Shown: positions 3,676 to 56,495 of the stretch, piece after piece
Layout of the letters: each line of letters begins with the position of its first letter
Numbering within the stretch: the stretch's first letter is position 1
NCBI RefSeq assembly: GCF_026210795.1
Contig: NC_089430.1
Coordinates: forward strand, 744,001 to 808,000
DNA length: 64,000 nucleotides
Reading direction: 5' to 3'
Source of the DNA: Rhizophagus irregularis
Lineage: Eukaryota
Made by a program: the position numbers and the translations under genes
Notes under the pieces: model-generated
Seen by the model: only the letters and a program-made list of their open reading frames with translations
What the model was told of the DNA's origin: nothing
The model's database searches: none

Positions 3676-3954
3676 TAGCAAATTCTTACTAAATAAGTAT
3701 GGAAGTGTGGTACTGTCACTACTGGAATTCACCGCGCACGTCCAAAATTCAGGCTATATAAAAGTAAATTTTTTTTTTTTAGTAAAAATCTGATTCAATT
3801 TTTAACTACGTGATTATATCAGATCGAATTTTATGAAATTTTAGTATAAATGGCTAATTACAAAAAAACTTACCTTCGATTTTTGCTTTTTATAAGGCGT
3901 TAAATTCGTACAACCCACGCTTTTCATCATCTTCCTCCAAGCACGTAACTCCCA

Positions 3955-5280
3955 GTTCTGACCTACACTGACTATGAACAAAAAAAGTAAAAAATAAACT
4001 CAACCAAACGCGGCCCATTTCGAGCTCTCACGTAATGGTTGTGATTCTTAGATAGTTCATAATAAAGTAAAAAAACCATTAACAATAAACATACCAAAAG
4101 TGAATACAAATTTCTTAATCAGCACGGCAGATCACTGACTCTGACCTACACTGACTATGAACAAAAAAAGTAAAAAATAAACTCAACCAAACGCGGCCCA
4201 TTTTGAGCTCTCACGTAATGGTTGTGATTCTTTAGATAGTTCATAATAAAATAAAAAACCATTGACACTAAACATACCAGATCACCAGTTCTGACCTATA
4301 CCGACTTTGAACGAAAAAAAGCAAAAATAAACTCAACCAAACGCGGCCCATTTCGAGCTCTCACGTTATGGTTGTGATTCTTTAGATAGTTCATAACAAA
4401 GTAAAAACCCATTAACAATAAACATACCAAAAGTGAATACAAATTTCTTAATCAGCACGGCAGATCACCGGTTCTGACCTACACCTACTATGAACAAAAA
4501 AAAGTAAAAAATAAACTCAACCAAACGCGGCCCATTTTGAGCTCTCACGTAATGGTTGTGATAATTCATAACAAAGTAAAAACAATTAACACTAAACATA
4601 CCAGATCACCGGTTCTGACCTACACCGATTATGAACGAAAAAAAGTAAAAATAAACTCAACCAAACGCGGCCCATTTTGAGCTCTCACGTTATGGTTGTG
4701 ATTCTTTAGATAGTTCATAATAAAGTAAAAAACCATTAACACTAAACATACCAAAGTGAATACAAATTTCTTAATCAGCACAGCAGATCACCGGTTCTTG
4801 ACCTACACCGACTATGAACAAAAAAAAGTAAAGAACAAACTCAACCAAACGCGGCCCATTTCGAGCTCTCACGTAATGGTTGTGATTCTTAGATAGTTCA
4901 TAATAAAGTAAAAAAACCATTAACAATAAACATACCAAAAGTGAATACAAATTTCTTAATCAGCACGGCAGATCACTGACTCTGACCTACACTGACTATG
5001 AATAAAAAAAGTAAAAAACTCAACCAAACGCGGCCCATTTCGAGCTCTCACGTAATGGTTGTGGTTCTTTAGATAGTTCATAACAAAGCAAAAAACCATT
5101 AACACTAAACATACCAGATCACCGGTTCTGACCTACACTATGAACAAAAAAAGTAAAAAATAAACTCAACCAAACGCGGCCCATTTCGAGCTCTCACGTT
5201 ATGGTTGTGATTCTTTAGGTGATTCATAATAAAGTAAAAATCATTAACACTAAACATATCAAAAGTGAATACAAATCTCC
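3955..5280. repeat. Tandem array of 8 units of ~141-184 bp
   Basis: Unit core CTGACCTACAC...AAACTCAACCAAACGCGGCCCATTTCGAGCTCTCACGTAATGGTTGTGATTC recurs at ~3957, 4140, 4290, 4473, 4614, 4797, 4981 and 5127. Long and short units differ by an optional AAAGTGAATACAAATTTCTTAATCAGCACGGC module. Confidence 0.95.
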
Positions 5281-9095: not shown

Positions 9096-11259
9096 TAACT
9101 AATGTATTCATTATAAAAATCATATATATTTTCTTTCTACAGATTATAATAAAATGCCCATTGACGTGACGTCGTGCCATCGCCAAATTGGCAATTAAAA
9201 GAAAAAAAAGCTTGACAGAACAATATCTTCCACTGAATTCCTAATATTGATTAATCGAAAATTGGTTCGTTTAATAATGCGTGCGAAGTTATAAAATGTA
9301 CATAATTTTATTCCAAAAAAAAACTTACTAATTGACGAGAAAATTATTGCTGTTTCCATAAAATTATTAACTTGTTCAATAATAATTCTAGTAAATAATT
9401 TCTGTATACAGTATTTATTATCCATAAGACTATAACAACTGACATTGGTTAATGATTCCGTTATACTATTTCTGAACTCGTTTTCACATTGCAACTTTTT
9501 AATTTTTCCATGTCCTTTTATGTCATATTTTATGCTTTTAATGTTTCTTGACTTGGAATTTTGATTGAAAAATATATAAATTTTAACGTTTTTTATATTT
9601 TTTAAAATAAATATTTACGTATTTAAATTTTTGAACACCATAAAAAATAATTCATATATAAAGAATTTTATTTGACAATTTTATAACGAAAATATTATTC
9701 TAAACATAAAAAAATAACTGAGTAGGATAGTAGAATATTTAAGTTTATATAATTATCATCAAATTTAATAATAATAATAAAAATACTAACTATAATATCA
9801 GTACAATGATTTTTGTTCACCTAAAATTTCATTTATACAAATTTTTTACCCAATTTTATTGAAGCAAAATACTAATAAGATTACTTCTTACAATCTAATT
9901 TTGATTACATTGACATTATTGTAGAAAATTGACTATTTTGTCTATTAACAAGAGGTCATGTTCACGGGAAGTCTATAGAAGATTTTAATTAAAAGTTATT
10001 GTAAAAAATGACTTATTATTGCGTAACTAAAAAATTTATTTGACGTTTAGAATACCTCCATATAGATAATTTGTATAGCAGAAAAATTTATAATTTAGTT
10101 GCCATGTAAACATTCCGATGGCCAATTCATGTGGCTAATCCGATTCCAGTTAATAAAATTTTGATATTTTTATAGGTAATAAGTAAAATAGTGCTATACG
10201 TTGATATGAGCTCAGTACGAACGCCTTTATATTTTGATAGTACATACGTTTACATAAATTATACTAGTACTGTACTAAAAATACTTTTGTACAACTTTGG
10301 CAGTTCATCTTGGAATTTTTTTACGAAACTTTTCTCTCATCCTATTTCTTCCTAATAATTTTTTTTTCATAATTATTCTTCCAACGAACAGTTTTTACCA
10401 CTATGATAAAATTTTTTAATATATACAGTCAGGGATCATGTTACAACTAAATTTTTGTATCCGGATCAGTTTCTACTAACTGTGTTTTGAACCAAATACT
10501 ATAGTTATTTCTTTGAAAATTTGGAAAAAGATCCTTTTAATTTCACGAAAAAATCACAGTTTAATGTTTTGGAAAGAGTTTCTTGTTCCCTTAAGAAAAT
10601 ATTGATTAAAACGAAAATTGAGATAACTTCCCTAATTTTACATATCTAAATAATTTATTTTCGTTGCTTATTTCATTTTTTTAAAAAAAAACACTTTCAA
10701 GAATTTATTATTTCTCTTAAATAAATAATACTGATAACTATTAGATGCTAATATTTGACGGAAGTCACAGAACCTATATAAACATTATGCATAATAAATT
10801 TGAAAATTTGATTAGGTCCAAAGCTTTAAACTATTTAAAAAATTTTTATATAAAATAGTACTTTTTATTTTTTTTATAGAGAATAGATGTTTTTTTTACA
10901 GTGAAGATTTTCAATTTTTATTATTTTTTCGTTTATATTTACAGTTTCAGTTTTATTTTATTGTATAGTCTTTTTTTGTAATATTTTTTTAGAATTTTAT
11001 TTGCATATATAAAAATTTAAGTCAACACATTTACGATTTTAAAGAAAAAAATCACTGTATTTATTTTTAATGAAGTAATACAAATAAAAAAAAACAATAA
11101 CAATGAATAAAAAAGATAAGTAAATTACAATGATCAAGGAGAAAGATGCTAATAAAAATGAAGCAACAATGGAGTAATGGAAAATAATAGAAGATGAAAG
11201 GGAGTAAAAAATAGTAATGAGAAGTGATAAGAAGCAAAAAGGAGAAATAGGGCATGATG

Positions 11260-11720
11260 AGAGATGAAAAGTAGTGATGGGAGAAGAGGAGTGATGGGAG
11301 GTAAAAAGGAGTGATGGGAGACGAAGAGGAGTGATGGGAGACGAAAAGGAGTGATGGGAGACGAAAAGGAGTGATGGGAGACGAAAAGGAGTGATGAGAG
11401 ACGAAAAGGAGTGATGAGAGACGAAAACAAGTGATGGGAGATGATGAGGAGTGATGGGAATGATGGGAGACGAAAAGAAGTGATGGGAGATGAAAAGAAG
11501 TGATGGGAGACGAAAAGAAGTGATGGAAGATGAAGAGGAGCGATGGGTGAAGAAGTGATGGGAGATGAGGAGTGATGGGAGAGGAAAAGGAGTGATGAGA
11601 AACGAAAAGAAGTGATGGGAGACGAAAAGGAGCGATGGGAGACGAAAGAAGTGATGAGAAGATGAAGAGGAGTGATGGGAGACGAAAAGGAGTGATGAGA
11701 GACAAAAAGAAATGATGGGA
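11260..11720. repeat. Purine-rich ~20-bp minisatellite (GAGTGATGGGAGACGAAAAG)n
   Basis: About 20 or more degenerate tandem copies with almost no C on the plus strand. Confidence 0.95.
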
Positions 11721-14700: not shown

Positions 14701-14795
14701 ATCTAATACTACTTATTTAATGCATGAAGTCACAGTATCAAACAAAAAAGTTGACTAGTAAATTGTATATCAACCGTTTTATATAGGGTTTTTTC

Positions 14796-17267
14796 TTATT
14801 GTTCCTATCAGAATAAATATAATTAATCAATAAATAGTTCATATTAAAATTTAAATAAACAAAATAAAAAAAATAAATACTAACCAATTCTTTTTTAATA
14901 TTGCTAATATATTCTGATACTTTATGTATTCCATCATTTTCTTGATATAATTTATACCATTTTAAAGCCTTTCCTTTATTTACTGGTACTTGATTATCTA
15001 AAGTATCTATTCCATATTCATAACATATAGCTAAAGAATATTGAGAGGGTATAAATCCATTTTTAGCAGAATTTTTATATAATTCATATGCTTTAAAATT
15101 ATTTTTTTGTATACCATAACCATATTCATAAAAATTTGCAAGATAATATAAGGCTATATTACATCCATTGTTAGCAGCAATTTGATAAAATTTAAATGCT
15201 TTTTTGAGATCTTTTTTAATACCATATCCATAATGATAACACCTTCCAACATGATAATAACCATTTATAACATTATGCTGACTTGCATGTGTATACCACT
15301 TAAAAGCCATATCCAAATCTTTATCGACTCCAAACCCTTTATAATGAAAAAATCCAATAATCACTTTATAATGTTGTGTAGCTTGATTATTAGCAAAATA
15401 ATTCAAAATTTCGCGTGATTTTGCCTTATGATTTTCCAAAAATTTATAAAAATCGAAACTCTTTGTAAATCCATTATTGTGATATTTTAAATATGCTTGA
15501 AAAATTTCCTCTAAAAGAGTATTTGATTTTTTTTCGTTCTCATTATTTTTAGATGAAATGGGTGATGATGGTGGAGGTGTATCTAATAATACACACTAAT
15601 ATTATTAATAAATCATAAGCAAATCATAAATATACACGTACTTACTGGTTTGATTTTCAGTTTGATTAACGCTTTTATCCTCATTAATGTTAGACGAAAC
15701 GGGTGATGATGGCGGAGGTGTATCTAATAATACAACATTAATATTATTAATAAATCTTAAGCAAATCATTAATAAATAAATATGTACTTACTAGTTTGAT
15801 TTTCAGTTTGATTAACGCTTTTATCCTCATTAATGTTAGACGAAACGGATGATGATGGCGGAGGTTTATCTAATAACACAATATTAATGTTTTTAAATAA
15901 AATTTTAAACAAACCAACAATAAATAAATGTGCACTTACCAGTTTGATTTTCAGTTTGACTAACATCAGATGAGATGGATGATTTTCTTTCGTTATCAAT
16001 ATAAAATGAAACAGATGATAATGGTGTACCTAATAACGTATTGTCATTAGTATATGTAAACAAACATAATAACAAATAATATATTGTACTTACTGATTTG
16101 AAAATCACTTGATTTTGATGATTGAGATTCTGTTTCATTATTATTATTATTCTCAGTAATCTCCGAATAGCCTTCATTATCGGTGTTAAATTCTAAAGAA
16201 ATTTTATTTAATTTATCAAAAACATCATCAATAGTTGGTCTTAAATCTGGATTATCATCCCAACATTTCTGATAAAGATCCACATAAGATGAAGGTGTGT
16301 CAATTATTGGCTGTTCTCTATAACCCATTGCGATTTTATAACCTAAAATTTGAATTGGAATGGTTGAAAAAGGCGGATATCCACTTGAAATTTCCCATAA
16401 AAGAACACCTAAACTGTAAACATCAGACTTTTTATTTCTAACATAGTTGTCAGTTTTATAACATTGTGGTTCGACATATGCTGGCATTCCATAAATTTTT
16501 GAAATTGACGTAACATCGACAGTCGTTTGTTTGGATAATCCAAGGTCCGCAATCATCAATGTATTATCATTAACTAATATATTTTTTGCATGCTATAAAT
16601 AAAATAAAATGAAATAAAATTTTAGAATTTATATATTTATATTATAAAAAATAAATTTTATATTACCAAATCTCTATGAATTATTTCTCTAGAATGCAAA
16701 CACTTCAATCCCAATGTAATATCCAAAGCCATTTGAATTTTGTCTTTCCATTGAAGTGAAGCAAAGTTATTTTCTAAATATTCTCTTAAATTTCCCTGAT
16801 TGGCGTAGTGTAATACCATAATATAATTGTTTGATGACGGCTCTAAACCAATAATTAGTTAAAATAATTTTTTTATTTAAAAAAAAAGTATAAAATATTA
16901 TATCTTTACCTTTGGTAATTCCAAAACACCGGTTTATATTTGGATGAAAATTGACCTTTCTTAAATTCTTTAACTATTTAAAATACAATAATAATAAAAT
17001 TTAGGCTTAGTACTAACTACAGTATCATATTCAAAATTAATTACGTACCTCTTTAAGAAACTTGTTCATATTATCTTCATTGATTGAAGAATTGCTTGCA
17101 AGAATTTTTAATGCTACTTTACTTCTACAACTTTTCCAATCAGCTCTATTTACTATTCCGAAGGCTCCATTACCAATATTTTTCATATTGCTAAATTCAT
17201 TATACTCGAAATAATTGATATCATCATCTTTTATTTTTTTGTCAATCCAATCATTTGGTGATGTCAT
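14796..17267 (-). CDS. TKL-family protein kinase with C-terminal Sel1-like repeats (9 exons)
   Basis: GT-AG exons 17267-17049, 16973-16910, 16842-16667, 16592-16094, 16029-15940, 15869-15792, 15723-15646, 15582-14885, 14804-14796. Motifs GNGAFG, VALK, HRDL|HAKN, DLG, YVEPQ, SDVYSLG; Sel1 repeats such as GYGIKKDLKKAFKFYQIAANNG. Confidence 0.9.
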
Positions 17268-21350: not shown

Positions 21351-24300
21351 TTAGATTGCGTAATCTAAACCTTGAGAATTATCATCATATTCTGGAAGGT
21401 CATCTGTAAAAGGATTAAGTAATCGAGATGTGTAAATAGCTTGTGGATGGGTAACTACTTGGTAATTTTTAATGGATGAAAGATTTGCTTTTCTATATTC
21501 TTCTGCTTTCTTAAATTGCATTCCAATTTCTTCATTTTCTGTGGAAAAATCCACCATATATGACTTATGTAATGACTCAATTAATTTATTTATACCAAAA
21601 ATATCTGGTCTATTATTCGGGTTTAAATCCCAACACTTTTTCATTAAATCAATATACCATTTTGGTGCTTCTGGTTCATTTATTTCAGGTCTAACTCCTT
21701 TACAAATATCTAATGCAAGAAGATGATCATGTGCACGATTGTAAAAAGGTTGTTTTCCAGTTGCTACAAAATACATTATCATACCAAAACTATAGATATC
21801 TGATTCCTGGGTATAAGGCCTCCTTCTCAATACTTCAGGAGCCACATAAGGCATAACTCCATAGATTTTAGTTTCATCTATATCTATATCACCAACTTTT
21901 CCACATAATCCCATATCTGAAATTAATATCCAATCCTCAAAATTATGCATTTTACTTAAAAATAATATACTTTTTTGATGAATTTCTTTAAGGCCATTAA
22001 TAATATTGAGCAGTGCAAGTAGTTTATCTTTCCAATTAAAATACTCGTAGTTTTCATTTATCCAATGATTGAAATTGCCTTCTGCTGCATATTGGAGAAC
22101 CATAACATATTCTTTCGTATCTGGATGTTGAGATATTCCATATATATTAAGAATATTACTTTCTATATTTATTGAGTATTTTTTAACCTATTAAATATTT
22201 AAGTAACAAAAAATAGTTAAATTTATAAAGAATTTTTCTATTAAAATGATTTTTAAAAAATTTCATACCTCATTTAAAAATTTATTACTAATATTTTGTG
22301 ACTTATGTAAGCATTTTAAGGCAACTATTTTATTTGGTTTCCTTTTATATATATTTTTATCTGTACCATATTTTAATGGACCATTTTTCCAATTTGCAGA
22401 ATATACTGTAGCAAAGCCACCTTCACCTACTTTCTTAAAATTATTGAACTGATTATATGGTATCCATTCAACTACTATATCATCACATTTATTAACTTTT
22501 AATTGCATTTCTTGAATGAAATCATCAATTTTTTTATTTCCACTCGTCCACATAAGAACTAAAATATAATCACCTGTATATGAATTTTGAGAAATTCCAT
22601 ACAATACTTGAAAAGCTTTATGCTTTGTTGGATAAATTTTAGCCTAAACATAAATAAAGAGATTGTAAACATATTAATTACTAAAAAAAGTATTAAATAC
22701 TTAAAAAAATTTCATACCTCATTTATTAAAGAATCAATAGATTCTTGTGAATTATGTAAATATTTTAAAGCAACTTTTTTATTTGAATCTCTTGTATAAT
22801 ATTTATCATCCTGATGCTTTTTGTGTAATGGACCATCCTTCCATATTGCTAAATATGATGTTATAAGGTCATTTTTGCCTGTTTCTTCAATTTCATTAAA
22901 CTGATTGTATGGTATCCATTCAAGTATTATATCATCATAATCATTAATTTTAAGTTGCCTTTCTTGAATGAAATTATCAATTCTTTCATTTCCACTAATC
23001 CAATTTATCAAGTTTATAGTATAACTTTGAACAAAAACATAATCACCTGTATCTGAATTTTGAGATATTCCATACAATAATTGAAATGCTTCATGTTTTG
23101 TTGAATATTTTTTAGCCTAATAAAAGAGATTGTAAATAAATATATTAATTAAAAAGTATTTAAATATTTAAAGAAATTACATACCTCATTTATTAAAGAA
23201 TCAATGGATTCTTGTGAATTATGTAAACATTTTAGAGCAACTTTTTTATATGAATCCCTTGTAAACTCTCTATACTGATAATGTAATGGACCATCCTTCC
23301 ATATTGCAGAATATATTGTTATAAGACCATTTTTGCCTGTTTCTTTAATTTCATTAAACTGATTGTATGGTATCCATTCAAATACTATATCACTATGATA
23401 GTTATAAATTTGTAATTGCATTTCTTGGATGAAATTATCAATTTTTTCGTTTCCACTAATCCAATTTACCATGTTTATAGTATAACTTTGAACCAAAATA
23501 TAATCTCCTGTATCATTATTTTGAGATATTCCATATAATGCTTGAATTGCATCATATACTGTTGAATATTTTTTAGCCTAAATATAAATAAAAAAGGTTG
23601 TAAATATATTTAACTAAAAAAATATTAAATATTTGTAGAAATTTCATACCTCATTTATTAAAGAATCAATTGATTGTGAATTATTTAAATATTTTAAAGC
23701 AACTTTTTTATTTGAATCTCTTGTGTACTCACTATACTCACTATCATATTTAAGTAATGGACCATCCTTCCATATTGCAGAATATATTGTTATAAGGCCA
23801 TTTTTGCCTGTCTCTTTAATTTCATTGAACTGATTGTATGGTATCCATTCAAGCACTATATCACTATGATAGTTATAAATTTGTAATTGCATTTCTTGGA
23901 TGAATTCATCAATTTTTTCATTTCCACTTGTCCACATAAGAACTAAAATATAATCTTCTGTATCTGGATTTTGAGATATTCCATACAATTCTTGAAATAC
24001 ATTATGTTTTATTGGATATTTTTCAGCCTAAGTATAAATAAAGAGATTGTAAATATATTAATTAAAAAGTATTTAAATATTTGAAGAAATTTCATACCTC
24101 ATTTATTAAAGAATTAATGGATTCTAAACATTTAAAAGCAACTTCTTCATTTGAATATCTTTCATACTGATCATATAATGGACCATCCTTCCATATTGCA
24201 GAATATACACCATTTTTGCCTGTTTTCTTAATTTTATAAAACTGATTGTATGGTATCCATTCAAGTACTATTTTATAATGGGCATTAATTTTTTGAATGA

Positions 24301-27300
24301 AATCATCAATTTTTTTACTTCCACTAATCCAATTTGTCAAGTTTTTAGTATGACTTTGAACCAAAATATAATCTCCTGTACTTTGATTTAGAGATATTCC
24401 ATACAATACTTGAAATGCATCATATTTTGTTGAATATTTTTTAGCCTAAATATAAATAAAAAAATTATAAATATATTAATTAGAAAAATATTTAAATATT
24501 TGAAGAAATTTCGTACCTCATTTATTAAAGAATCAATTGATTGTAAATTATGTAAATATTTTAAAGCAACTTTTTTATTTGAATCTCTTGTGTATTCACT
24601 ATTCTGATAATTAAATGGACCATCCTTCCATATTGCAGAATATATTGTTACAAGACCATTTTTGCTTGAATCTTTAATTTCATTAAACTGATTGTATGGT
24701 ATCCATTCAAATACTATATCATTATATTTATTAATTTTTAATTGCATTTCTTGGATGAAATCATCAATTATTTCATTTCCACTAATCCAATTTGTCAAGT
24801 TTATAGTATAACTTTGAACCAAAATATAATCTCCTGTATTTTGATTTTGAGATATTCCATACAATACTTGAAATAATCCATTGTCTGTTAAATATTTTCT
24901 AGCCTAAATATAAATAAAGAGATTGTAAACATATTAGGTACAAAAAAAGTATTAAATACTTAAAGAAATTTCATACCTCATTTATTAAAGAATCAATAGA
25001 TTCTTGTGAATTATGTAAATATTTTAAAGCAACTTTTTTATTTGAATCCCTCGTATAATTTTTATCATCCTTATGCTTTTTGTGTAATGGACCATCCTTC
25101 CATATTGCAGAATATAAAGTTATAAGGCCATTTTTGCCTGTTTCTTTAATTTCATTAAACTGATTGTATGGTATCCATTCAAGTACTATACCATTATATT
25201 TATTAATTTTTAATTGCATTTCTTGGATGAAATCATCAATTTTTTTTATTTCCACTTGTCAATATATAATTATTTTGAACAAAAATATAATCTTGTGTAT
25301 CAGGATTTTGAGATATTCCATATAATATTTGAAATTTACCATCTTTTATTAGATATTTTTTAGCCTAATAAAAAAAGATTGTAAATATATTAATTAAAAA
25401 AGTATTTAAATATTTGAAGTTACTTCATACCTCATTTATCAAAGAATCAATTGATTGTGAATTATGTAAATATTTTAAAGCAACTTCTTTATATGAATCT
25501 CTTGTACAATCACTCCATTTATTTTTCTTATATAATGGACCATCCTTCCATATTGCAGAATATACTGTTATAAGGCCATTTTTGCCTGTCTCTTTAATTT
25601 CATTAAACTGATTGTATGGTATCCATTCAAGCACTATATCATCATATTCATTAATTTTAAGTTTCCTTTTTTGAATGAAATTATCAATTTTTTCGTTTCC
25701 ACTAATCCAATTTGTCAAGTTTATAGTATAACTTTGACCCAAAATATAATCTCCTGTATCTTGATTTTGAGATATTCCATACAATACTTGAAATGCTTTA
25801 TGTCTTGTTAGATATTTTTTAGCCTAAATGTAAATAAAAAAGATTGTAAATATATTAATAATTAAAAAAGTATTTAAATATTTGAAGAAATTTAATACCT
25901 CAGTTATTAAAGAATCAATGGATTCTTGTAAATTATGTAAACATTTTAAAGCAACTTTTTTATTTGAATTTCTTGTATACTCATTATACTGATAATGTAA
26001 TGGACCATCCTTCCATATTGCAGAATATATTGTTATAAGGCCATTTTTGCCTGTTTCTTTAATTTCATTAAACTGATTGTATGGTATCCATTCAATCACT
26101 ATATCATCACAATCATTAATTTTTAATTGCATTTCTTGGATGAAATTATCAATTTTTTCGTTTCCACTAATCCAATTTGCCATGTTTATAGTATAACTTT
26201 GAACTAAAATATAATCTCCTGTATCTTGTTTTTGAGATATTCCATACAATACTTGAAATAATCCATTGTCTGTTAAATATCTTTTAGCCTAAATATAAAT
26301 AAAAGTGATTGTAAATATATTAATTAAAAAAGTATTCAGATAGTTGAAGAAATCTCATACCTCATTTATTAAAGAATCAATTGATTGTGAATTATGTAAA
26401 TATTTTAAAGCAACTTTTTTATTTGAATCTCTTGTGTATTCACTATTCTGATAATGTAATGGACCATCCTTCCATATTGCAAAATAAATTGTTATAAGGT
26501 TATTTTTGCCTGTCTCTTTAATTTCATTAAACTGATTGTATGGTATCCATTCAAATACTATATCATCACAATCATTAATTTTTAATTGCATTTCTTGGAT
26601 GAAATTATCAACTTTTTCAATTCCACTTATCCATATATAATTATTTTGAACCAAAATATAATCTCCTGTATCTTGACTTTGAGATATTCCATATAATATT
26701 TGAAAATTTTCATCTTTTGTTAGATATTTTTTAGCCTAACAAAAAGAGATTGTAAATATATTAATTAAAAAAGTATTTACATATTTAAAGTTACTTCATA
26801 CCTCATTTATCAAAGAATCAATTGATTGTGAATTATGTAAATATTTTAAAGCAACTTTTTTATTTGAATCTCTTGTATAATTTTTATCATCCTTATGCTT
26901 TTTGTGTAATGGACCATCCTTCCATATTGCAGAATATATTGTTATAAGGCCATTTTTGCCTGTTTCTTTAATTACATTAAACTGATCGTATGGTATCCAT
27001 TCAAATACTATATTATCATATTTATTAATATTTAATTTTTTTAATTGCATTTCTTTAATGAAATTATCAACTTTTTTAATTCCACTTATCCATATATAAT
27101 TATTTTGAACAAGAATATAATCTCCTGTATCTGGGTTTTGAGATATTCCAAATAATATTTGAAAATTTTCATCTTTTATTAGATATTTTTTAGCCTAATA
27201 AAAGAAATTGTAAATATATTAATTAAAAAAGTATTTAACTGAAATATTTGAAGAAATTTCATACCTTATTTATTAAAGAATCTATGGATTGAAAATTATG

Positions 27301-30300
27301 TAAACATCTTAAAATGACTTTTTCATTTAAATCTCTTGTATAATTTTTATCATCCTGATGCTTTTTGTGTAATGGACCATCCTTCCATATTGCAGAATAT
27401 ATTGTTATCTGGCCATTTTTACCTGTCTCTTTAATTTCATTAAACTGATTGTATGGTATCCACTCAAATACTATATTATTATATTCATTAATTTTTAATT
27501 GCATTTCTTGGATGAAATTATCAACTTTATCATTTCCACTTGTCAATATATAATTATTTTGGACAAGAATATAATCTCCTGTATCTGGGTTTTGAGATAT
27601 TCCATATAATATTTGAAATTTTTCATCTTTTCTTAAATATTTTTTAGCCTAATAAAAGAGATTGTAAATATATTAATTAAAAAAGTATTTAAATATTTGA
27701 AGATATTTCATACCTCATTTATTAAAGAATTAATTGATTGTGAATTATATAAATATTTTAAAGCAACTTTTTTATTTGAATCTCTTGTGTACTCACTATA
27801 CATACTATCTTCTGTGTACTCATTACTACACTCACTATACTGCTGTAGTAATGGGCCATCCTTCCATATTGCAGAATATATTGTCATAAGTCCATTTTTG
27901 CCTGTCTCTTTAATTTCATTAAACTGATTGTATAGTATCCACTCAAATACTATATTATTTAGTTGCATTTCTTTAATGAAATTATCAACATTTTCATTTT
28001 CACTTGTCCATGTATAATTATTTTGAATAAAAATATAATCTCCTGTATCTGGGTTTTGAGACATTCCATATAATATTCGAAATTTTTCATCTTTTGTTAG
28101 ATATTTTTTAGCCTAATAAAAAGAAATTGTAAATATATTAATTAAAAAAGTATTTACCTGAAATATTTGAAGATATTTCATACCTCATTTATTAAAGAAT
28201 CTATGGATTGTAAATTATGTAAACATTTTAAAGCAACTTTTTTATTTGAATCTCTTGTATAATTAGTTTCCCCCAAACTACTCTGCCTGTGTAATAATGG
28301 ACCATCCTTCCATATTGCAGAATATATTGTTATCTGGCTATTTTTACCTGTCTCTTTAATTTCATCAAACCGATTGTATGGTACCCATTCAAATACTATA
28401 TCATTATATTTAATAATTTTTAATTGCATTTCTTGGATGAAATTATCAATTTTTTCGTTCCCACAAATCAAATTTTCCATGTTTATAGTATAATTTTGAA
28501 CAAAAACATAATCTCCTGTATCTGAATTTTGAGATATTCCATACAATACTTGAAATGCATCATATTCTGTTGAATATTTTTTAACCTAATAAATGAAATT
28601 GTAAATAAATATATTAATTAAAAAGTATTTAAATGTTTAAAGAAATTACATACCTCATTTATTAAAGAGTCAATGGATTGTGAATTATGTAAACATTTTA
28701 AAGCAACTTTTTTATTTGAATCTCTTATGTACTCACTATACTGATAATGTAATGGACCATCCTCCCATATTGCAGAATATATTGTTATAATGCCATTTTT
28801 GCTTGTCTCTTTAATTTCATTAAACTGATTGTATGGTATCCATTCAAATACTATATCATTACATTTATTAATTTTTAATTGCATTTCTTGGATGAAATCA
28901 TCAATTTTTTCGTTTCCACTAATCCTATTTGTCATGTTTATAGTATAACTTTGAACTAAAATATAATCTCCTGTACTTTGATTTTGAGATATTCCATACA
29001 ATACTTGAAACGCACCATATTTTGTTGAATATTTTTTAGCCTATTATAAATAAAAAGGTTTGTAAATATATTAACTAAAAAAAATATTTAGATATTTGAA
29101 GAAATTTCATACCTCATTTTTTAAAGAATCAATTGCTTGTGAATTATGTAAATATTTTAAAGCAACTTTTTCATTTGAATCTCTAGCATATTTGCATTCC
29201 TGATGCTTTTTGTGTAATGGACCATCCTTCCATATTGCAGAATATATTGTTATAAGGTCATTTTTGCCTATCTCTTTAATTTCATTAAACTGATAGTATT
29301 GTATCCATTCAAATACTATATCATCATAATCATTAATTTTTAATTGCATTTCTTGGATGAATTCATCAATTTTTTCATTTCCACTAATCCAATTTGCCAT
29401 GTTTATAGTATAACTTTGAACAAAAACATAATCACCTGTATCTGAATTTTGAGATATTCCATACAATAATTGAAATACTTCATGTTTTGTTGAATATTTT
29501 TTAGCCTAATAAAAGAAATTGTAAATAAATATATTAATTAAGAAGTATTTAAATATTTAAAGAAATTACATACCTCATTTATTAAAGAATCAATGGATTC
29601 TTGTAAATTATGTAAACATTTTAAAGCAACTTTTTTATTTGAATCTCTTGTGTACTCACTATATATACTATCTACTGTATACTCATCACTATACTCACTA
29701 TATATATATACTATCTCCTGTGTACTTATTACTATACTTACTATACTGTAATGGACCAACCTTCCATATTGCAGAATACATTGTTATAAGGCCATTTTTG
29801 CCTGTCTTTTTAATTTCATTAAACTGATTGTATGGTATCCATTCAAATACTATATCATCACAATCATTAATTTTTAATTGCATTTCTTGGATGAAATCAT
29901 CAATTTTTTCGTTTCCACTAATCCAATTTGCCATGTTTATAGTATAATTTTGAACAAAAACATAATCTCCTGTATCTGAATTTTGGGATATTCCATATAA
30001 TAATTGAAATACTTTATTTTTTGTTGAATATTTTTTAGCCTAATAAAAGAATTGTAAATAAATATATTAATTAAAAAGTATTTAAATATTTAAAGAAATT
30101 AAATACCTTATTTATTAAAGAGTCAATGGATTCTTGTGAATTATGTAAACATTTTAAAGCAACTTTTTTATTTGAATCTCTTATATAACTACTATGACAA
30201 TACTTCTTGTATAGTGGACCATCCTTCCATATTGCAGAATATACTGTTATCTGGCCATTTTTGCCTGTTTCTTTAATTTCATTAAACTGATTGTATGGTA

Positions 30301-33300
30301 TCCATTCAAGCACTATATCATCACAATCATTAATTTTTAATTGCATTTCTTGGATGAAATCATCAATTTTTTCGTTTCCACTAATCCAATTTGCCATGTT
30401 TATAGTATAATTTTGAACCAAAATATAATCTCCTGTATCTTGATTTTGAGATATTCCATACAATACTTGAAATAATCCATTGTCTGTTAAATATTTTTTG
30501 ACCTAAATATAAATAAAAGTGATTGTAAATATATTAATTAAAAAAGTATTCAAATAGTTGAAAAAATCTCATACCTCATTTATTAAAGAATCAATGGATT
30601 TTTGTGAATTATGTAAACATTTTAAAGCAACTTTTTTATTAGAATCTCTTGTATAATTTTTATCATCCTGATGCTTTTTGTGTAATGGACCATCCTTCCA
30701 TATTGCAGAATATAAAGTTATAAGGCCATTTTTGCCTGTTTCTATAATTTCATTAAACTGATTGTATGGTATCCATTCAAGCACTATATCATTATATTTA
30801 TTAATTTTTAATTGCATTTCTTGGATGAAATCATCAATTTTTTTTATTTCCACTTGTCAATATATAATTATTTTGAACAAAAATATAATCTTGTGTATCA
30901 GGATTTTGAGATATTCCATATAATATTTGAAATTTTTCATCTTTTGTTAGATATTTTTTAACCTAATAAAAGAGATTGTAAATATATTATTAAAAAAGTA
31001 TTTAAATATTTGAAGTTATTTTATACCTCATTTATCAAAGAATCTATGGATTGTAAATTATGTAAACATTTCAAAGCAACTTTTTTATTTGAATCTCTTG
31101 TATAATTTGTTTCCTTATAATTCGCCACTAATGGACCATCCTTCCATATTGCAGAATATACTGTTATAAGGCCATTTTTGCCTGTCTCTTTAATTTCATT
31201 AAACTGATTGTATGGTATCCATTCAAATACTATATTATTATATTTATTAATTTTTAATTGCATTTCTTGGATGAAATTATCAACCTTTTCATTTTCACTT
31301 GTCCATATATAATTATTTTGAGCAAGAATATAATCTCTTGTATCTGGGTTTTGAGATATTCCATATAATATTTGAAATTTTAGATATTTTTTAGCCTAAT
31401 AAAAAGAGATTGTAAATATATTATTAAAAAAGTATTTAAATATTTGAAGTTATTTCATACCTCATTTTTCAAAGAATCTATGGATTGTAAATTATGTAAA
31501 CATTTTAAAGCAACTTTTTTATTTGAATCTCTTATGTATTCACTATACTGATAATGTAATGGACCATCCTTCCATATTGCAGAATATATTGTTATCTGGC
31601 CATTTTTGCCTGTCTCTTTAATTTCATTAAACTGATTGTATGGTATCCATTCAAATACTATATCATTATATTTATTAATTTTTAATTGCATTTCTTTAAT
31701 AAAATTATCAATCTTTTCATTTTTACTTGTCCATATATAATTATTTTGAACAAGAATATAATCTCCTGTATCTTGATTTTGAGATATTCCATATAATGTT
31801 TGAAAATTTTCATCTTTTGTTAGATATTTTTTAGCCTAATGAAAAGAGATTGTAAATATATTAATTAAAAAAGTATTTAAATATTTGAAGTTTTTTCATA
31901 CCTCATTTATTAAGGAATCTATGGATTGTAAATTATGTAAACATTTTAAAGCAACTTCTTTATATGAATCTCTTGTATAAATTCCATCCCAACTCCTTGA
32001 GTTTGATAATGGACCATCCTTCCATATTGCAGAATATACTGTTATCTGGCCATTTTTGCCTGTCTCTTTAATTTCATTAAACTGATTGTATGGTATCCAT
32101 TCAAATACTATATCATTATATTTATTAATTTTTAATTGCATTTCTTGGATGAAATTATCAACCTTTTCATTTTCACTTATCCATATACAATTATTTTGAA
32201 CAAGAATATAATCTCCTGTAATTGGGTTTTGAGATATTCCATATAATATTTGAAAATTTTCATCTTTTGTTAGATATTTTTTAGCCTAATAAAAAGAGAT
32301 TGTAAATATATTAATTAAAAAAGTATTTAAATATTTGAAGTTTTTTCATACCTCATTTATTAAGGAATCTATGGATTGTAAATTATGTAAACATTTTAAA
32401 GCAACTTCTTTATATGAATCTCTTGTATAAATTCCCTCCCAACTCCTTGAGTTTGATAATGGACCATCCTTCCATATTGCAGAATATACTGTTATCTGGC
32501 CATTTTTGCCTATTTCTTTAATTTCATTAAACTGATTGTATGGTATCCATTCAAATACTATATTATCACAATTATTAATTTTTAGTTGCATTTCTTGGAT
32601 GAAATCATCAATGTTTTTGTTTCCACTAATCCAATTTGTCATGTTTATAGTATAACTTTGAACTAAAATATAATCTCCTGTACTTTGATTTTGAGATATT
32701 CCATACAATACTTGAAACACACCATATTTTGTTGAATATTTTTTAGCCTATTATAAATAAAAAAGTTTTAAATATATTAACTAAAAAAAATATTTAAATA
32801 TTTGAAGAAATTCATACCTCATTTATTAAAGAATCAATTGATTGTGAATTATGTAAACATTTTAAAGCAACTTTTTTATTTGAATCTCTTGTGTACTCAT
32901 TATACTCACTATCACTTTTGTAATCATACAGATACTCTTTGTGTAATGGACCATCCTCCCATATTGCAGAATATATTGTTATAAGGTCATTTTTGCTTGT
33001 CTCTTTAATTTCATTAAACTGATTGTATGGTATCCATTCAAATACTATATCATTATATTTATTAATTTTAATTGCCTCTCTTGAATGAAATTATCAATTT
33101 TTTCATTTCCACTTGTCCACATATAATTGTTTTGAACCAAAATATAATTTCCTGTATCTGAATTTTTAGATATTCCATACAATACTTGAAATGCATTATA
33201 TTTTGTTGAATATCTTTTAGCCTAAATAATAAAAAAGGTTGTAAATATATTAACTAAAAAAAATATTTAAATATTTGAAGAAATTTCATACCTCATTTAT

Positions 33301-33645
33301 TAAAGAATCAATTGATTGTGAATTATGTAAACATTTTAAAGCAACTTTTTTATTTGAACCTCTTGTCTAATTTTTATCATATTGATGCTTTTTGTGTAAT
33401 GGACCATCCTCCCATATTGCAGAATATATTGTTATAAGGCCATTTTTGCCTGTCTCTTTAATTTCATTAAACTGATTGTATGGTATCCATTCAAATACTA
33501 TCATATTATCAGAATCATTAATTTTAAGTTGCCTTTCTTGTATGAAATCATCAATTTTTTTATTTTCACTGGCCCGATTGATTTCTAAATATTCCTGAAT
33601 ATTATTTTCTGTCAAGAGTATTTTTTGAGAAAACATTGTTTTCAA
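21351..33645 (-). CDS. Giant tandem kinase-N-lobe repeat (pseudo)kinase locus: 24 degenerate N-lobe exons, 1 canonical N-lobe exon and 1 C-lobe exon; partly disrupted
   Basis: 25 recurring donors after ..INE|GT (~22268, 22717, 23184 ... 32817, 33291) and acceptors AG|GCTAAAAAATAT, with ~420-530 bp periodicity. Module: YGISQxxxTGDYILV..WISGNEKIDDFIQEMQLKIN..EWIPYNQFNEIKETGKNGLITIYSAIWKDGPL-[variable]-YTRDSNKKVALKxLHNSQSIDSLINE. The last N-lobe exon (22643-22269) has GEGGFATVY; the terminal exon (22187-21351) has DMG, APE and SDIYSFG. True start codon uncertain. Confidence 0.9.
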
Positions 33646-35287
33646 AAGTTCAAAATTTTTTCCAAATAAAAATCTTATTTATAATAAACTTTGTAATGTA
33701 CAAGTAACAGGTAACACAAAAATCTGCATAAATTACTTATATAAGCATTATGTAATAAGGCTTGTTAGTAAAATTTCAATGTCGATCATATCAAAATTTA
33801 CTTGAAAAAATTTTTATCTTTATACAAATTCTTTTTAAATATTTAGGTAATAAATACACAATTTGCATTGAGGACACTCAAAAAATATTAAAATAGGTAA
33901 GGTCTAGCCAAAAAAAAATTACAGTATTAGTGTCAGGCAGCTACTAGAACAGGAAATAAAACTCTGGCCAGCATTATCGAAAATTGTCCAAAAAAGAAAG
34001 ATATACATGATTATTTGGCCTATTTAAATTCAAAATTCAATTATTTTGTTGTCAAAGTGGCTAAAATTGTTAAAAAAAAAAAAAATTTTTTGTTAAGTTC
34101 TTATCAATACGATTATTAGTTTAGAATTCAAAGACTTCATGTACCTCCCAGCCGTTCTCCTTTTTTAATAATAGAAAATGGGTCTCGTATAATCTGATTA
34201 CATTATAATGAAAGTATTACCAATAATGTTTATTATTTTTAATACTATATTATAAATTTGTACATCAATGATTAGAATATTTTGAATATTTTGAATTTTA
34301 TAATTTTATGGTATCAATTCTCGCATGAGAGTATTGGTAACAAGCAGGAGAAAAGATTTGAAATGTAATATTAAAGATGCATAATTCTTTACATCATACT
34401 TGATACTTCTCCAAATCTCCAATAAATGGTTTATTACGATAAGAATAACAATTTTGATTAGGCATTTATTTATGAAATTGTACTTTACGATTTGTTACTC
34501 TTTTAACCCCTTTTATTCATTTTTATGAGAGTTTTTATTGAGATTTTATTTCAAATAGATAATCGTAAATGACTTTTTCATCCTTGTAAACAAACTATCA
34601 TCGAATATGATCCAATGATCATCCGTAAATCATTTAGACATTTACGTTATTCAAGTTGGTACCTCTTTTAATTTAAAATCAAATGTTGAACATGTAAAAA
34701 TGCGAATTATATGTCATTGTATTTTTTTGTAGCCATATGGCGACCTACCGAAAAGAGTTTTATTTAAATGTCAACTTGAAATATAAAGAATGTGATGTTA
34801 ATCTGAGTGGTGTAAATTATATAAGATACACTGTTTCAAAAGAAATTATACAAACTGGTGTAGAAATTAAAAAGTTTCATAATTTGATAAAACTCATCAT
34901 TTATTTTTTCAATTTTATCCATTCAAATACATTATTACTTAATATATATCAAGTATATGAAAGGATGGTTCATTATACTAGTTTATTGGTGAATCCGTGA
35001 ATGTACTGATAAGGTATGAAATTCCTTTTCGATTTATAATGTGATATGTGCGGCTGAAAAAATATGTTGTACAGACTATTCCAATTTTGAATTAGTGATC
35101 TGCTGGATCTACAAATTATATTTTTCATATGCACGAATAGTTACACTTTATTAATTTGTATTCAAGAAAAATAAATTTTAAACTTCCGGTTTACTCTTTC
35201 TTTTTTTTGTCCAAACTTTCATTTCATTTTATATATCAAATATTATTTAAATAACTATTATATAATTTTATATAATATTTATATAAT

Positions 35288-36929
35288 ATGAATTATACTA
35301 AACTTAATACAAAATATAAATTTAAAGCTCTTGTTTCAAAAGATTTAAGAGATGAAATTGAAGAAAAGGGAGTATGTTCTAATTGTAAGAGTCCAAATAC
35401 TGGAGAAGACTGGTGTAATAAATGTGATCCAGGACGTTTTTTAAGAGAAGGAAAATCAAGTGGAGATCCTGAATTAGATAAATTAATTTATGAATCACAA
35501 CTTCAAACAAATAATTATTATCATAATTTAGAATGGATACCTTATGATAGGTTTCAAGATATTAAACCTATTGGTAAAGGAGGCTATGCTATTGTTTATT
35601 CAGCTACTTGGTTGGATGGAGAACCTAATGAACTCCATAGAGAACGTACTGGTCCTATTACAGTTGCACTTAAAAAATTTAAGAGCTCATTAAATATCAT
35701 GGAAGCTCTTACTAATGAGGTGAATAAAATTTTTTTTTGGTTAATTATTATTTGAAGTTATTACTAATAAATATTTTTTACTTAGGTTAAAATACATAAT
35801 GAATGTAATACTGGTAGCACTAGATTATACGGTATAACAAGAGGTCCACGATCAAAAGAACCTATAATGGTTTTAGCATATGCTAAACATGGAAATTTAA
35901 GAAATTATTTAAAAGAAAAATTTTCTACTTTAAAATGGGAACACAAATTAAATATATTATCTTTTGTTACATTAAATCTTCAAGTTATTCATGGATCAGG
36001 ATGTATTCATAAAGATTTACATAGTGGAAACATACTCATTGGTTTTAATGATCCAACGTTTAATTTTGGCGAATCTTTAAACTCTAAATTGAGTAGTCTT
36101 GGTTTAAACCTTAATGATGATGAATTTCCTGACACAAAAATTACTGATTTTGGGCTTTCACAATTCATAAATAATTCTAAAACTTCAGATTCTACAAATG
36201 TATGTGGAATACTTCCTTATGTAGCACCTGAGATCTTGGAAGGAGAACCTTATACAGAAGCAAGTGATATTTATAGCTTAGGGATTATTATGACAGAATT
36301 AACTACAGGAAAACCGCCTTATGGAACTGTACCTCATAATGATGATCTTACACTTGCAATTTGCAGTGGTTTAAGACCAAGAGTTGCTAAAGGAACACCT
36401 AAACGTTATATTGATTTAGTAAACCAGTGTCTTGATGCAGAACCACAAGAAAGACCTTCTAGTATTGAATTATATAGAATATTTGAAAATTGGAAATTAA
36501 AATTAGAAGATAAAAAACCATCAAAAATCTTTGACGAATTTTCTGAGGCAGATAAAATTATCTTAGAATCACCTGCTGAAATAACATTACATGATGGAGC
36601 AATTTATATTAGTCGTAATATGAGATTTCCTAATAATCTCCCTAAATCAGTAAATTCCCAAAGAGTTCAATTTGAAGATAATAATGGTGAATATTATCTT
36701 ATTTAATATATATATAATATATAATTACTGTGTAGTTACATAATTTTCATTTTATAGTTTCGGATTCTGATTTAATTAACCGCATGCTTGTTATTGCTAT
36801 TCAAGAACAGAGTCAAGGTATTTTTTTATTTGAATGTTATTATGTTTAATAAAATATAATTAAATTAACTAAAGCTTTTTTTTTATTGTGTAAGATGACG
36901 ATATGAAAATTGAAGTACTGAAAGATTAA
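35288..36929 (+). CDS. TKL-family Ser/Thr protein kinase with N-terminal CxxC..WCxxC motif (4 exons)
   Basis: Exons 35288-35719, 35786-36686, 36758-36817, 36895-36929. Motifs GKGGYA, VALKK, HKDLHSGN, DFG, APE, SDIYSLG. Confidence 0.92.
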
Positions 36930-43525: not shown

Positions 43526-45081
43526 TTATTCATCGTCTTCTGTATAATATTTAATAAGATCGATTTTATCAACATTTTCATTCATTTCTATATAATCTAT
43601 ATGCAATAACAATAAGTTAAATAACAAAATAGAAATGACAGAAAAATAATTAATATATAGATACCTTGATCAAATGAACTTTGAAAATCATCAGAAATAT
43701 GCTGGTCAATTAATTGTGAATCTGAAACTGAAATAAAAGACATTTGAATTTTCTAAATTCTGAATTTAAAACTATTAAGTTAATTTTAAAATTTTCACCT
43801 TTTGAATCTTCAATTTGAACTTTTGTAGAATTTCTTGGAATGGTAAGATTAGTAAAACTCATATAACGACTAATGTATATTGCTTCAGAATGAAATTTGT
43901 TTTCTGAAGTGGAATCCTGTGAATTAATATCAATAAAATTCTTATAACTTTTTAAATAATGTAAATAGTAAGATAAATTTTTGGGTCTTTTTTCGGGATT
44001 TGCATCAAGGCATTGATTTACTAAATTAATATAAACTTTTGGTGTTCCTTTGGCTACTCTTGGTCTTAAACCATTGCAAATTGCTAATGCAAGTTTCTCA
44101 TCATGTGGTACATTTGAATAAGGTGACCTTCTAGTTGTCATTTCTATCATAATAATTCCAAAACTATAAATATCACTAGCAAATGTGTATGGTTCTCCAT
44201 ATAAAACTTCTGGGGCTATATAAGGAAGTACTCCACAAACATTTGAAGAATCAGAGGATCTTGAATTTTGTATTAATTTTGCAATTCCTAAATCTGCAAT
44301 TTTTGTAACTTTAACATCCATATAAAATTGAAGTATATTTCCACTATGTAAATCCTTATGAATATAATTATTCTTATGAATAATATCAAGAGAGTCTGCA
44401 ATATTACATAAAATATTTAATTTTTCTTTCCAATTTAAATTATGAAAATTTTTTTTAAGGTACTCTCTTAAACTTTCATCTGCAAATTTTAATACCATCA
44501 TAAATTCTTCTGTTTGTGGATCTTTTGTTATACCATAAAATTGTACGATATATAAACGAAGAGAATTATCAAATTCATTATACATTTTAATCTAAATAAA
44601 TATAAAAATAATTAATATAATTTTAAATAAAAAAAAATTTAATAATTAAAAATTTAATAATTTTATAATTTTTGTAAAAAAAAATTTTTACCTCGTTAAT
44701 AAAAGTTTCTGTCATTTTTATTGAGTTTTTAAATTTTTTAAGTGCAACTATAATAGACCCGTTCGGATTTCTCCTTTTATTATTCCAAGAAGCTGAAAAA
44801 ATATTAGAAAAACCACCTTCACTTATTGATTTAATATCAAGAAATTTATCATATGGTATCCATTCTAAATTATAACGATCATCAGTATTAAGTTGTGATT
44901 CATGAATTAATTTGTCTATTTCAGGATTTCCACTCGTTTTTCCTTCTCTTAAAAACCGTCCTGGGTCACATTTATTACACCATTCTATTCCGGTATTAGG
45001 CTTTTTACAATCATGACACACACCAAAGTATTCAATGACATTTTTAGTTTTCTTTGAAAAGATAGTTTTGAATTTATGCAT
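43526..45081 (-). CDS. TKL-family Ser/Thr protein kinase, paralog of 35288-36929 (4 exons)
   Basis: Exons 45081-44692, 44591-43799, ~43727-43664, ~43596-43526. Motifs WCNKCDPGRFLREGK, EGGFS, VALKK, HKDLHSGN, DLG, APE. Same intron positions as the paralog. Confidence 0.92.
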
Positions 45082-46255
45082 ATAGAATATTTGATATATA
45101 ATAATTATAAAATATGTACTATTATTTATTTTGAAAGAAAAAAAATTAAAGTGAAAAAAAATAAATTTCGGCGATCGGAATAAATTTTATACCGCAGATC
45201 ACGTGTCAAATTATTGTGACGTCTTGAACGTCTGATTATCAATCATCGAAAATTTTTTTTAATCGTGTTGTTAATGGTAATAAATATAATTTACATTTAT
45301 TATATTCCTAATTTACGTTGAAACAGTAACTACATTTTACATTTTTCCTGTTGTTGACATTTGTATTATCCTTTATTAAATAATTAACTTTAGTAATTTA
45401 AATTGATTAATAGAAAAAGAGAAGCGAAAGGAAATTCAAAGAATAATACTTTATTAGCAGATGCACATCGTCTAGAACATGATGCGCAGTTTCTGCGATC
45501 ATCATGTTATTAATAAAGTTTTTTTTTTAAAAAAAAAAAAATTCAAAGAATATTATGGTTTTACCATCATGTGCTTTAAAAGTTTTGATCTAGCGACAAC
45601 TATAATTAAAATTTTGATTAATATTTTCAATTTACTTATTTATTTATTAATTTATCGAATGTTATCGAGAAAGTAACAAGATATTCAATAATGTATTTTC
45701 AATTTTATTTGTTTTATAACTTTATTATTCAATAATATTATTCACATGTATTTTTAATCGTAACCGAATATTACATTAATAAAAAAAAGTTTCTTGAATT
45801 AAGGTAAGCCTTTAAATTAACTATAACATACGCATCACATAATTAATTTACTTCCTTGAAAATCACTATTATTATTTTTTTATTAATTTTTTATTTTTAT
45901 CATAAAGCTTTTTATTGGTTAATTTCATATTTTATTTATTTGTAAATATAATTTTCTTTCAATAAATAAATAAATAAAGTCTAGTTATTTCAATTATGTT
46001 TTATTTACTTCTTATTTCTTCAATTTAAAATTTAATTTGGTTGGCATTAAGTTTGACCGAAATATATGAAATCCTAATTACTGTATCAGAAAAATTAGAA
46101 TTAATAAATTTTAAAAGTGTAATAATGTCTTATTAACACAATTAATAGATATTTCACTGATATCTTATTATCTTAAGCATCTTAACCATTTATGTTACAA
46201 TTTTAAAAAGTCACAAAGATGATAAACGATAAATATCATCATCAAAATTTTTTTG

Positions 46256-56050: not shown

Positions 56051-56495
56051 TTTTAGTGTTATGTAGCGCTATAGTCGCAATTTTTATGTATTGTAAGCCG
56101 GCTTCCGGCAACGTTTTTATTTCATAAATAAAGTATTTTTATCGAACGTTATGAGAAACGGGTCACGTCTAATGAAATGGGGTGCGAACCCGATCACTAT
56201 GTAATATCGGACTATAAATCTAACCAATCTAGCCTATATAAAAAAGCGTAGCACTATATCAGGTGATAACTGATAAGTGAGAAGAGTCTTCACAGTTAGG
56301 GAGGCGCAGTGATTAGGCGTTCGTTGCACCATGCAATTGCTGATCATACGGCAGGCTTGTGAAACAGAATAATTTCTCACATATAGTGCTCACTCAGTAT
56401 TTTTTTTCACAAATAAAATTCTTTTTACTCTTGTCCTCATATACCGCACTTTGAGCCAATAACATTTCACAAAAAATACTATATAAGTCGGAAAT

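Follow-up and report, generated by a model that had tools for sequence, protein, structure and literature searches.

The window analyzed here, a stretch of 64,000 nucleotides (nt) from Rhizophagus irregularis (contig NC_089430.1, positions 744,001 to 808,000), carries on its minus strand a gene, running from an ATG at 33636 to a stop at 21351, in which 24 degenerate kinase N-lobes are followed by one terminal kinase. We tentatively read such arrays, at the level of the gene family and at somewhat less than even odds, as variable protein-binding (bait or sensor) modules that regulate the terminal kinase. The copy in the window is itself a transcribed, probably dead allele.

The gene can be divided into 26 exons by 25 phase-0 introns. 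After each of the 25 repeat exons (33636–22269) there is a GT-AG intron, which falls directly behind the alphaC codon; these introns are 64–75 nt long, except for the last (81 nt), and exons and introns together repeat with a period of about 460 bp. The features, all on the minus strand, are as follows.

21351..33636 (-): whole gene (disabled allele), 26 exons and 25 phase-0 introns, encoding 24 degenerate N-lobes and a terminal kinase (from splicing, motif counts, and the RNA-like runs)
33292..33636 (-): exon 1, with the leader MFSQK (MFSQN/MSSQN in the family), a helix, and beta1-alphaC of unit 1
33367..33369 (-): in-frame TAG at codon 90, where sister units have a Tyr codon
32818..33221 (-): exon 2, 404 nt, frameshifted, one base short in the A-run at about 33066-33069
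32748..32817 (-): intron 2, 70 nt, GT-AG; junction form spliced in run X18
31027..32747 (-): exons 3-6, intact (32747-32352, 32285-31902, 31835-31461, and 31395-31027)
30575..30962 (-): exon 7, 388 nt, frameshifted, +1 in the A8 run 30838-30845; same allele as exon 19
30107..30502 (-): exon 8, intact; alphaC Glu replaced by Lys
29574..30039 (-): exon 9, 466 nt, frameshifted by 43 duplicated bp with an AT run, within the beta2-beta3 loop (29660-29745)
25431..29505 (-): exons 10-18, all intact and forming the longest open run
24977..25364 (-): exon 19, 388 nt, frameshifted, +1 in the A8 run 25240-25247
22718..24903 (-): exons 20-24, intact degenerate units
22269..22643 (-): exon 25, beta4-beta5 of unit 24 plus a canonical N-lobe (GEGGFATVY, VALK, alphaC Glu); weak PK_Tyr_Ser-Thr match, E 0.009
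21351..22187 (-): exon 26, beta4-beta5 plus a C-lobe with DMG and APE; catalytic loop gone; Pfam Pkinase, E 9e-24

The initial annotation of this DNA described a tandem array of half-domains, and such an array exists: the 25 repeat exons encode 24 degenerate N-lobes, and unit-to-unit identity averages 87% (range 81–96%), far above chance. Each internal exon completes one lobe with its beta4-beta5 (YGISQ..YIL) and then opens the following lobe, contributing to it a helix (WxSGNEKIDDFIQE), EWIPY, beta1-beta3, and alphaC. The earlier statement that VALK and the alphaC Glu are kept with rare exceptions stands (VALK is exact and the terminal Glu present in 22 of the 24 degenerate units each), but the Gly loop was not swapped for ETGKNGLITIY, which is exact in only 5/24; it was altered by point substitution (GxGGF to GKNGL/Q), and (G/S)KN is found in all 24. 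Likewise, the 24 units do lack a C-lobe and the last N-lobe, that of unit 25, has a canonical Gly loop (GEGGF), although the range first given for the gene was incomplete, exon 26 (22187-21351) lying beyond it. That exon supplies the only C-lobe of the gene (Pfam Pkinase and PK_Tyr_Ser-Thr, E 9e-24), which is 78.5% identical to the C-lobe of homolog P0008. A Pfam scan of the degenerate exons returned nothing credible (no match for exon 23; B_lectin for exon 5 at E 0.03, below the cut-off), and a sequence search of solved structures gave two chance matches with E about 1. No NACHT or NB-ARC domain appeared in Pfam scans of the window exons, P0008, and P0172, and the 26 exons hold kinase-derived sequence only.

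Two single-domain TKL kinases in the window, at 35276-36706 (+) and 43710-45186 (-), have an N-terminal CxxC..WCxxC and carry the same post-alphaC intron (GT directly after TNE at 35720 and after INE near 44690), which bears out the earlier observation that the array introns sit where those of the ordinary kinases do. Because the position is shared with single-domain kinases, it is ancestral, and these two genes display the ancestral layout of the array unit. Phase-0 exon symmetry is no evidence of a shuffling design, since tandem duplication of any segment holding one intron yields that symmetry.

A product of 3,400–3,500 aa had been predicted for the gene, but it would be open (about 3,512 aa) only if six lesions were ignored: the TAG in exon 1, frameshifts in exons 2, 7, 9, and 19, whose lengths are not divisible by three, and a catalytic-loop deletion in exon 26. 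Of the 26 exons, 21 are intact; exons 10-18 still form an open run of 1,172 aa, and exons 20-26 one of 1,038 aa. The deletion is in-frame, removes 10 codons between 21969 and 21968 (IHQKS-ILF in exon 26 vs IHQKS-IVHRDFHTGN-ILF in P0008), and is shared by none of the homologs searched for its pattern. With the catalytic loop HxDxxxxN absent from exon 26 and the first stop at codon 90, the gene does not qualify as an active kinase. The disabled copy yields no 3,500-aa product from its own start codon, and the window allele very probably makes no functional kinase.

Five of the 24 listed public sequencing runs were compared with the window. The TAG is bridged without difference by contigs of runs X1 (33329-33420) and X6 (33329-33424), and is matched also by an X19 contig (33337-33420) that is one letter under the 31-letter bridging rule; it is no assembly error. 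At the exon 9 lesion an X1 contig (29632-29834) is identical, without a gap, and an X18 contig across the frameshift (29629-29835) is one base shorter, the gap's place not being shown; the latter may represent an in-frame allele of another isolate. X1 is possibly the source sample, so its match is a check on the assembly and not on the independent spread of the allele.

Runs X18 and X19 have zero depth in the intron-only bins that X1 and X6 cover, and X1, which had been guessed to be RNA, behaves as DNA. A joint in X18 removes exactly intron 2 (joint 32746-32817; plus-strand ends CT..AC; match to 59 letters of exon 3), X18 pieces end at both boundaries of intron 1 (33220, 33291), and a loose end in X19 is consistent with a junction leading into AKRY, with which exon 2 (and also exon 17) begins. 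Neither X18 nor X19 covers the 5′ part of exon 1 (33508-33636), which is no sign of silence. The window locus is transcribed and spliced; an untranscribed locus, which would have spoken against the initial annotation, does not agree with the spliced junctions in X18 and X19. Because the same TAG occurs in public runs and introns 1 and 2 are spliced in RNA-like runs, we take the locus to be a transcribed, probably dead allele. Disabling lesions, introns retained in the gene, and transcription together mark it as a probable transcribed unprocessed pseudogene, with the RNA status of X18 and X19 deduced from their coverage.

Three points should be set against this view of the locus. Four of the six lesions (exons 2, 7, and 19 and the catalytic loop) are bridged by no listed contig, and three of them lie in homopolymers; no run is recorded as RNA, so that X18 and X19 count as such through the absence of intron cover; and short contigs in a multi-copy family can stem from paralogs. 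The first point, together with the fact that the array is spanned by no contig, would also suit the explanation that the array or its lesions arose from mis-assembly or homopolymer errors, the frameshifts of exons 2, 7, and 19 all lying in A-runs. We consider that explanation extremely improbable, as units that are only 81–96% identical are neither collapsed nor inflated copies, contigs of X1 agree with the window at many places without difference (the TAG and the exon 9 lesion included), and similar arrays are annotated in several assemblies. Inflation of the array during assembly was rejected.

A further alternative is that the array acts as a Dscam-like generator of splice diversity, in which exon skipping gives in-frame isoforms and the locus remains functional by skipping broken exons or by using a downstream start. 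Every intron is in phase 0, the locus is spliced, and the two long open runs persist, all of which this idea accommodates; however, the stop sits in the exon with the start codon, the terminal kinase has no catalytic loop, and tandem duplication at an intron of ancestral position already accounts for phase 0. Exon ends do not differ within the 21 letters seen, which makes skipping indistinguishable from consecutive splicing, and no skip junction was identifiable in the short contigs. We regard splice diversity as a very improbable function.

The reading as a protein-binding module concerns the family, which was searched for using one exon as the query and proteins of 231–2,000 aa as the targets, a range in which arrays as long as that of the window could not be found. 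Of 870 candidate proteins, 773 matched at E<=1e-10. The best 120 of these are all named R. irregularis, R. clarus, or Glomus cerebriforme and contain 1,001 lobes, 4–15 per protein; an APE motif is present in 63, of which 55 retain the HxD(F/L/I)HxGN catalytic loop. Among these 120 the Gly loop is canonical in 52/58 terminal lobes vs 28/844 other lobes. The framework is well kept in 739 non-canonical units (beta3 Lys 89%, alphaC Glu 90%, both Trp 98%), as is the altered Gly loop (Lys 83%, Asn 77%), and variation in these units peaks in the beta2-beta3 hairpin, the alphaC-beta4 loop, and the linker, with loop entropy of up to 3.8 bits. A strongly hydrophobic 19-residue stretch is present in only 4/120 of the best homologs, so the family looks mostly soluble. 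In homolog P0008 (1,645 aa), for instance, Pfam detects a single kinase domain (PK_Tyr_Ser-Thr, E 3e-44) and gives no credible match for the repeats.

At E<=0.001, an exhaustive search yielded 1,801 cluster representatives. Ten divergent representatives were looked up, and they belong to Acaulospora morrowiae (five), R. clarus (four), and R. irregularis (one). Many divergent members carry between the lobes a CxxC..WCxxC linker, likely a zinc finger, which is lost in the subfamily of the window. The A. morrowiae proteins P0172, P0192, P0208, P0245, and P0262 consist of units made of a cysteine linker and an N-lobe, with the beta3 Lys largely lost. The intact multi-unit homologs and the similar arrays across Glomeromycota that the initial annotation called for were thus found, with 4–15 lobes in Rhizophagus and Glomus and related arrays in Acaulospora. 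Many of the listed array proteins have neighboring locus tags on one 4.9-Mb R. irregularis contig, which suggests that array genes form a large cluster there.

A FastTree phylogeny was built from 73 sequences and 126 columns and rooted on the two single-domain kinases of the window; it sampled up to two degenerate units from each of 27 proteins and left out the exon 25 lobe of the window. One clade (SH support 0.994) unites the linker-less units from R. irregularis, R. clarus, and the window and contains no terminal lobes; the Acaulospora units cluster with a terminal lobe from Acaulospora (0.994). On this tree, the clade of degenerate units predates the split of R. irregularis and R. clarus, and the units have not been regenerated from the terminal lobe of each gene. 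The grouping may point to separate Glomeraceae and Acaulospora origins of the arrays.

Structure prediction of 2–4 units had been proposed as a check on whether an N-lobe can fold by itself, and models were available for two homologs. For P0093 (four units plus kinase) the mean predicted local distance difference test (pLDDT) score was 78.6 and the predicted template modeling (pTM) score 0.57, and every unit is predicted to contain a helix, beta1-beta2, an extra hairpin, beta3, alphaC, and beta4-beta5. For P0143, which has three units and no C-lobe, the model reached pLDDT 82.4 and pTM 0.68. The Foldseek rows listed for P0143 are protein kinases throughout, and an unbiased search placed on top the N-lobes of RIPK2 (residues 8–98; Z 10.4, root mean square deviation (rmsd) 2.3 Å over 86 residues) and MLKL (Z 10.4, rmsd 2.1 Å over 84 residues), with matches mainly over P0143 residues 28–154. 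The units are accordingly predicted in these models to fold as N-lobes without a C-lobe, each as a helix, a five-stranded sheet, and alphaC; the pTM of P0143 hints at a defined packing between units.

Evidence that the array has been maintained as coding sequence comes from the units of the window. Among 165 single-base variant alleles one is a stop, vs 8.3–17.5 expected under four mutation models, and exon length alleles are in-frame in 16 cases and frameshifting in 3 (introns, 3 vs 7). Comparison of the units indicates that the reading frame was protected over most of the history of the array. The framework itself has an omega (the ratio of nonsynonymous to synonymous rates, dN/dS) of 0.71 (p 0.02). 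The beta2-beta3 hairpin varies from 48 to 96 nt in frame, and beta4-beta5 is a constant 30 nt between anchors in 24/24 units. An omega of 2.85 (p 0.018) for the alphaC-beta4 loop came from one fit and was not robust across models; the per-segment fits of the site-mixture run were unstable, with inconsistent p-values, and were not used singly. The nearest neighbor differs between the two halves of a unit in 21/24 units, which points to mosaic units, and the intron tracks the start of the downstream exon (Mantel r 0.20, p 0.03) and not the end of the upstream one (r -0.03).

Based on these observations, one can propose how the system might work. Unequal crossing-over and conversion within the exon-plus-intron period would add, drop, and remix units. 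The units would be unable to bind ATP or transfer phosphate, because they have no C-lobe and an altered Gly loop. Partners that target kinase N-lobes would bind the variable loops, and the output of the terminal kinase would change. Copies would be born and lost quickly, the window copy being one that is dead as a protein and transcribed still. The part of the initial annotation that has an isolated N-lobe serving as a repeat module is supported at the family level, through the many-unit homologs, the predicted fold, the conserved framework, the hypervariable loop, and the apparent mosaics; a working system at the window locus itself, with its TAG, four frameshifts, and missing catalytic loop, is not supported.

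Several results pull the other way and should be given due weight. Over the 19 intact units omega is 0.49 (GY+F3X4) or 0.79 (MG F1x4, p 0.06 vs 1), and counting-based pN/pS lies between 0.73 and 1.07 with no significant value. A site mixture on the alignable codons, which barely covers the unalignable beta2-beta3 loop, puts about half the sites near neutral and finds no significant class above 1 (twice the log-likelihood difference 1.3–3.6). A recombination test on the units, similar to the pairwise homoplasy index, was not significant (p 0.50), and 57/120 of the best homologs lack an APE motif; these may be truncated or dead genes, fragments, or partial models. Amino-acid constraint inside the window array, judged from these estimates, is weak, and CpG depletion (observed/expected 0.12 in exons) may bias the rates.

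Such values would be expected if the arrays were a tolerated by-product, that is, if the first exon-intron block were prone to unequal crossing-over, the extra N-lobes harmless, and selection concerned only with keeping frame and fold for the terminal kinase. This alternative, which we think unlikely but take seriously, draws on the dN/dS of 0.5–0.8, the near-neutral half of the sites, and the failure to detect positive selection. It also fits the CpG depletion, the decay of the window copy, and exons 7 and 19, near-duplicates with a common frameshift, which means that copying may have continued after loss of the frame. R. irregularis kinase genes, moreover, are described as high-copy and more methylated (PMC8647823). 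On the other side, the degenerate units form a clade older than the split of R. irregularis and R. clarus, 739 units retain the altered Gly loop and the framework but vary in one loop, and proteins of 1,000–1,900 aa would be costly as filler.

Another possibility is a fixed regulatory or scaffold module, in which a rod of N-lobes binds a constant partner (family kinases, a chaperone, or a substrate) or auto-inhibits the terminal kinase, and loop variation is incidental. In EGFR dimers and in clients of Cdc37-Hsp90, the N-lobe serves as a docking surface. The Lys-Glu pair, kept at about 90%, and the packing hinted at by the three-unit model would suit such a role, but the unit number ranges from 4 to 25, units differ within one protein, and the Lys is largely lost in the Acaulospora units; we consider this option improbable.

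It is helpful to compare the array with known systems, starting with the kinase non-catalytic C-lobe domain (KIND), which occurs in one or two copies. In both cases half a kinase fold has been co-opted as a non-catalytic module, although KIND derives from the C-lobe and the fungal array is a long tandem of N-lobes.

The closest precedent is the wheat tandem kinase RWT4/WTK3. In RWT4, an N-terminal partial kinase duplication (KDup) is needed for effector binding, two polymorphic residues of KDup are required for this, and no other resistance tandem kinase protein is reported to have such a duplication (10.1101/2024.04.30.591956). Here an N-terminal kinase part (short helix and beta-sheet) is duplicated ahead of an active kinase in the same protein, as in the fungal family; however, RWT4 has one KDup without the beta3 Lys plus a full pseudokinase, whereas the fungal proteins have 3–24 complete N-lobes, mostly with Lys and Glu, and the comparison is one of layout and not of homology. 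RWT4 gives the analogy with integrated-decoy tandem kinases, made in the initial annotation, a concrete case, and by this analogy a bait or sensor role like that of its partial duplication is plausible. The gene would nevertheless not be classed among plant tandem kinases or kinase fusions, which have two complete domains or an extended beta4-beta5 finger; it has one C-lobe and a beta4-beta5 of constant length. Cereal kinase fusion proteins bear an extended beta-finger on beta4-beta5, of conserved length and specific to Poaceae (10.1101/2025.07.14.664643). Both are sequence-variable beta-hairpin extensions on an N-lobe, and the cereal one takes part in recognition, but the fungal hairpin lies between beta2 and beta3 and is variable in length (48–96 nt).

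The repeats of fungal NOD-like receptors (NLRs; HET-E/NWD WD40, ANK, and TPR) show concerted evolution and positive selection (PMC4986451). Like them, the window array has high repeat identity (87%), variable repeat number, apparently mosaic repeats evolving in concert, and variation focused in few places; it differs in having no NACHT/NB-ARC, a repeat that is a 130-aa kinase lobe, and no detected positive selection.

The nearest relatives are found within the fungus. The terminal domain of the array is of the kind seen in the R. irregularis TKL expansion (PF07714/PF00069), the homologs are annotated as R. irregularis and R. clarus kinase-domain proteins, and the neighboring kinases share the intron position. 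With the profile matches of exon 26 and relatives that are, among the best 120, all Glomeromycota, the gene is a member of the Glomeromycota TKL expansion. It belongs neither to the plant tandem kinases nor to the NLRs, although its mode of action may resemble that of the RWT4 duplication. Published accounts of the R. irregularis TKL or Class C high-copy kinases cover gene counts, methylation, and location, and their accessible text mentions no internal N-lobe array (PMC4219462, PMC8647823, PMC10234402). A search of the openly accessible literature, main texts only, found no description of N-lobe arrays in these fungi, and the half-kinase array architecture of the family appears to be undescribed so far.

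Other features of the window should be recorded. An 832-aa open reading frame (ORF) at 50276-52774 (+) has a herpes-type origin-binding helicase domain (PF02399, E 2e-17), and R. irregularis genes with this domain have been discussed as possibly viral in origin (PMC10234402). At 56487-58210 (+), a Crinkler N-terminal domain (PF20147, E 1e-27) is followed by an ORF with a C-terminal kinase-like domain, which looks like one intron-split Crinkler-kinase gene. The region 14738-16592 (-), probably a TKL-Sel1 gene, holds a kinase C-lobe fragment and then Sel1 repeats, with a 146-bp three-copy tandem repeat between them (15539-15964). A Uma2-type putative restriction endonuclease domain (PF05685, E 4e-11) lies at 63092-63877 (+). 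At 3952-5258 there are nested tandem repeats, non-coding and 88–91% identical, whose periods are about 146, 184, and 324 bp, and a 20-bp minisatellite of about 23 copies, with several frames kept open, is found at 11255-11720.

Taken to its full extent, which is speculative and in our view rather doubtful, the proposal would make the N-lobe a new class of repeat protein in arbuscular mycorrhizal fungi: stacked lobes free of C-lobes, with a hypervariable hairpin, remixed by recombination, serving as a repertoire of baits for the proteins with which plants, endobacteria, or parasites target kinases, and signaling through the terminal kinase, possibly with at least two origins (Glomeraceae and Acaulospora). 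If true, stacked N-lobe baits would be a fungal parallel to the cereal kinase-fusion immune receptors.

Part of the R. irregularis kinase expansion carries an unannotated half-kinase array that is invisible to Pfam. One study counts 2,533 kinase genes in this species (PMC10234402), and the array offers a testable handle on the purpose of these roughly 2,500 genes: its unit is 130 aa long, its framework is conserved, a single loop is hypervariable, and there is a terminal kinase to assay. For structural biology, it is unusual to see an N-lobe stand on its own as a tandem repeat. The window copy is mainly a record of turnover, and it is the intact paralogs that are worth study.

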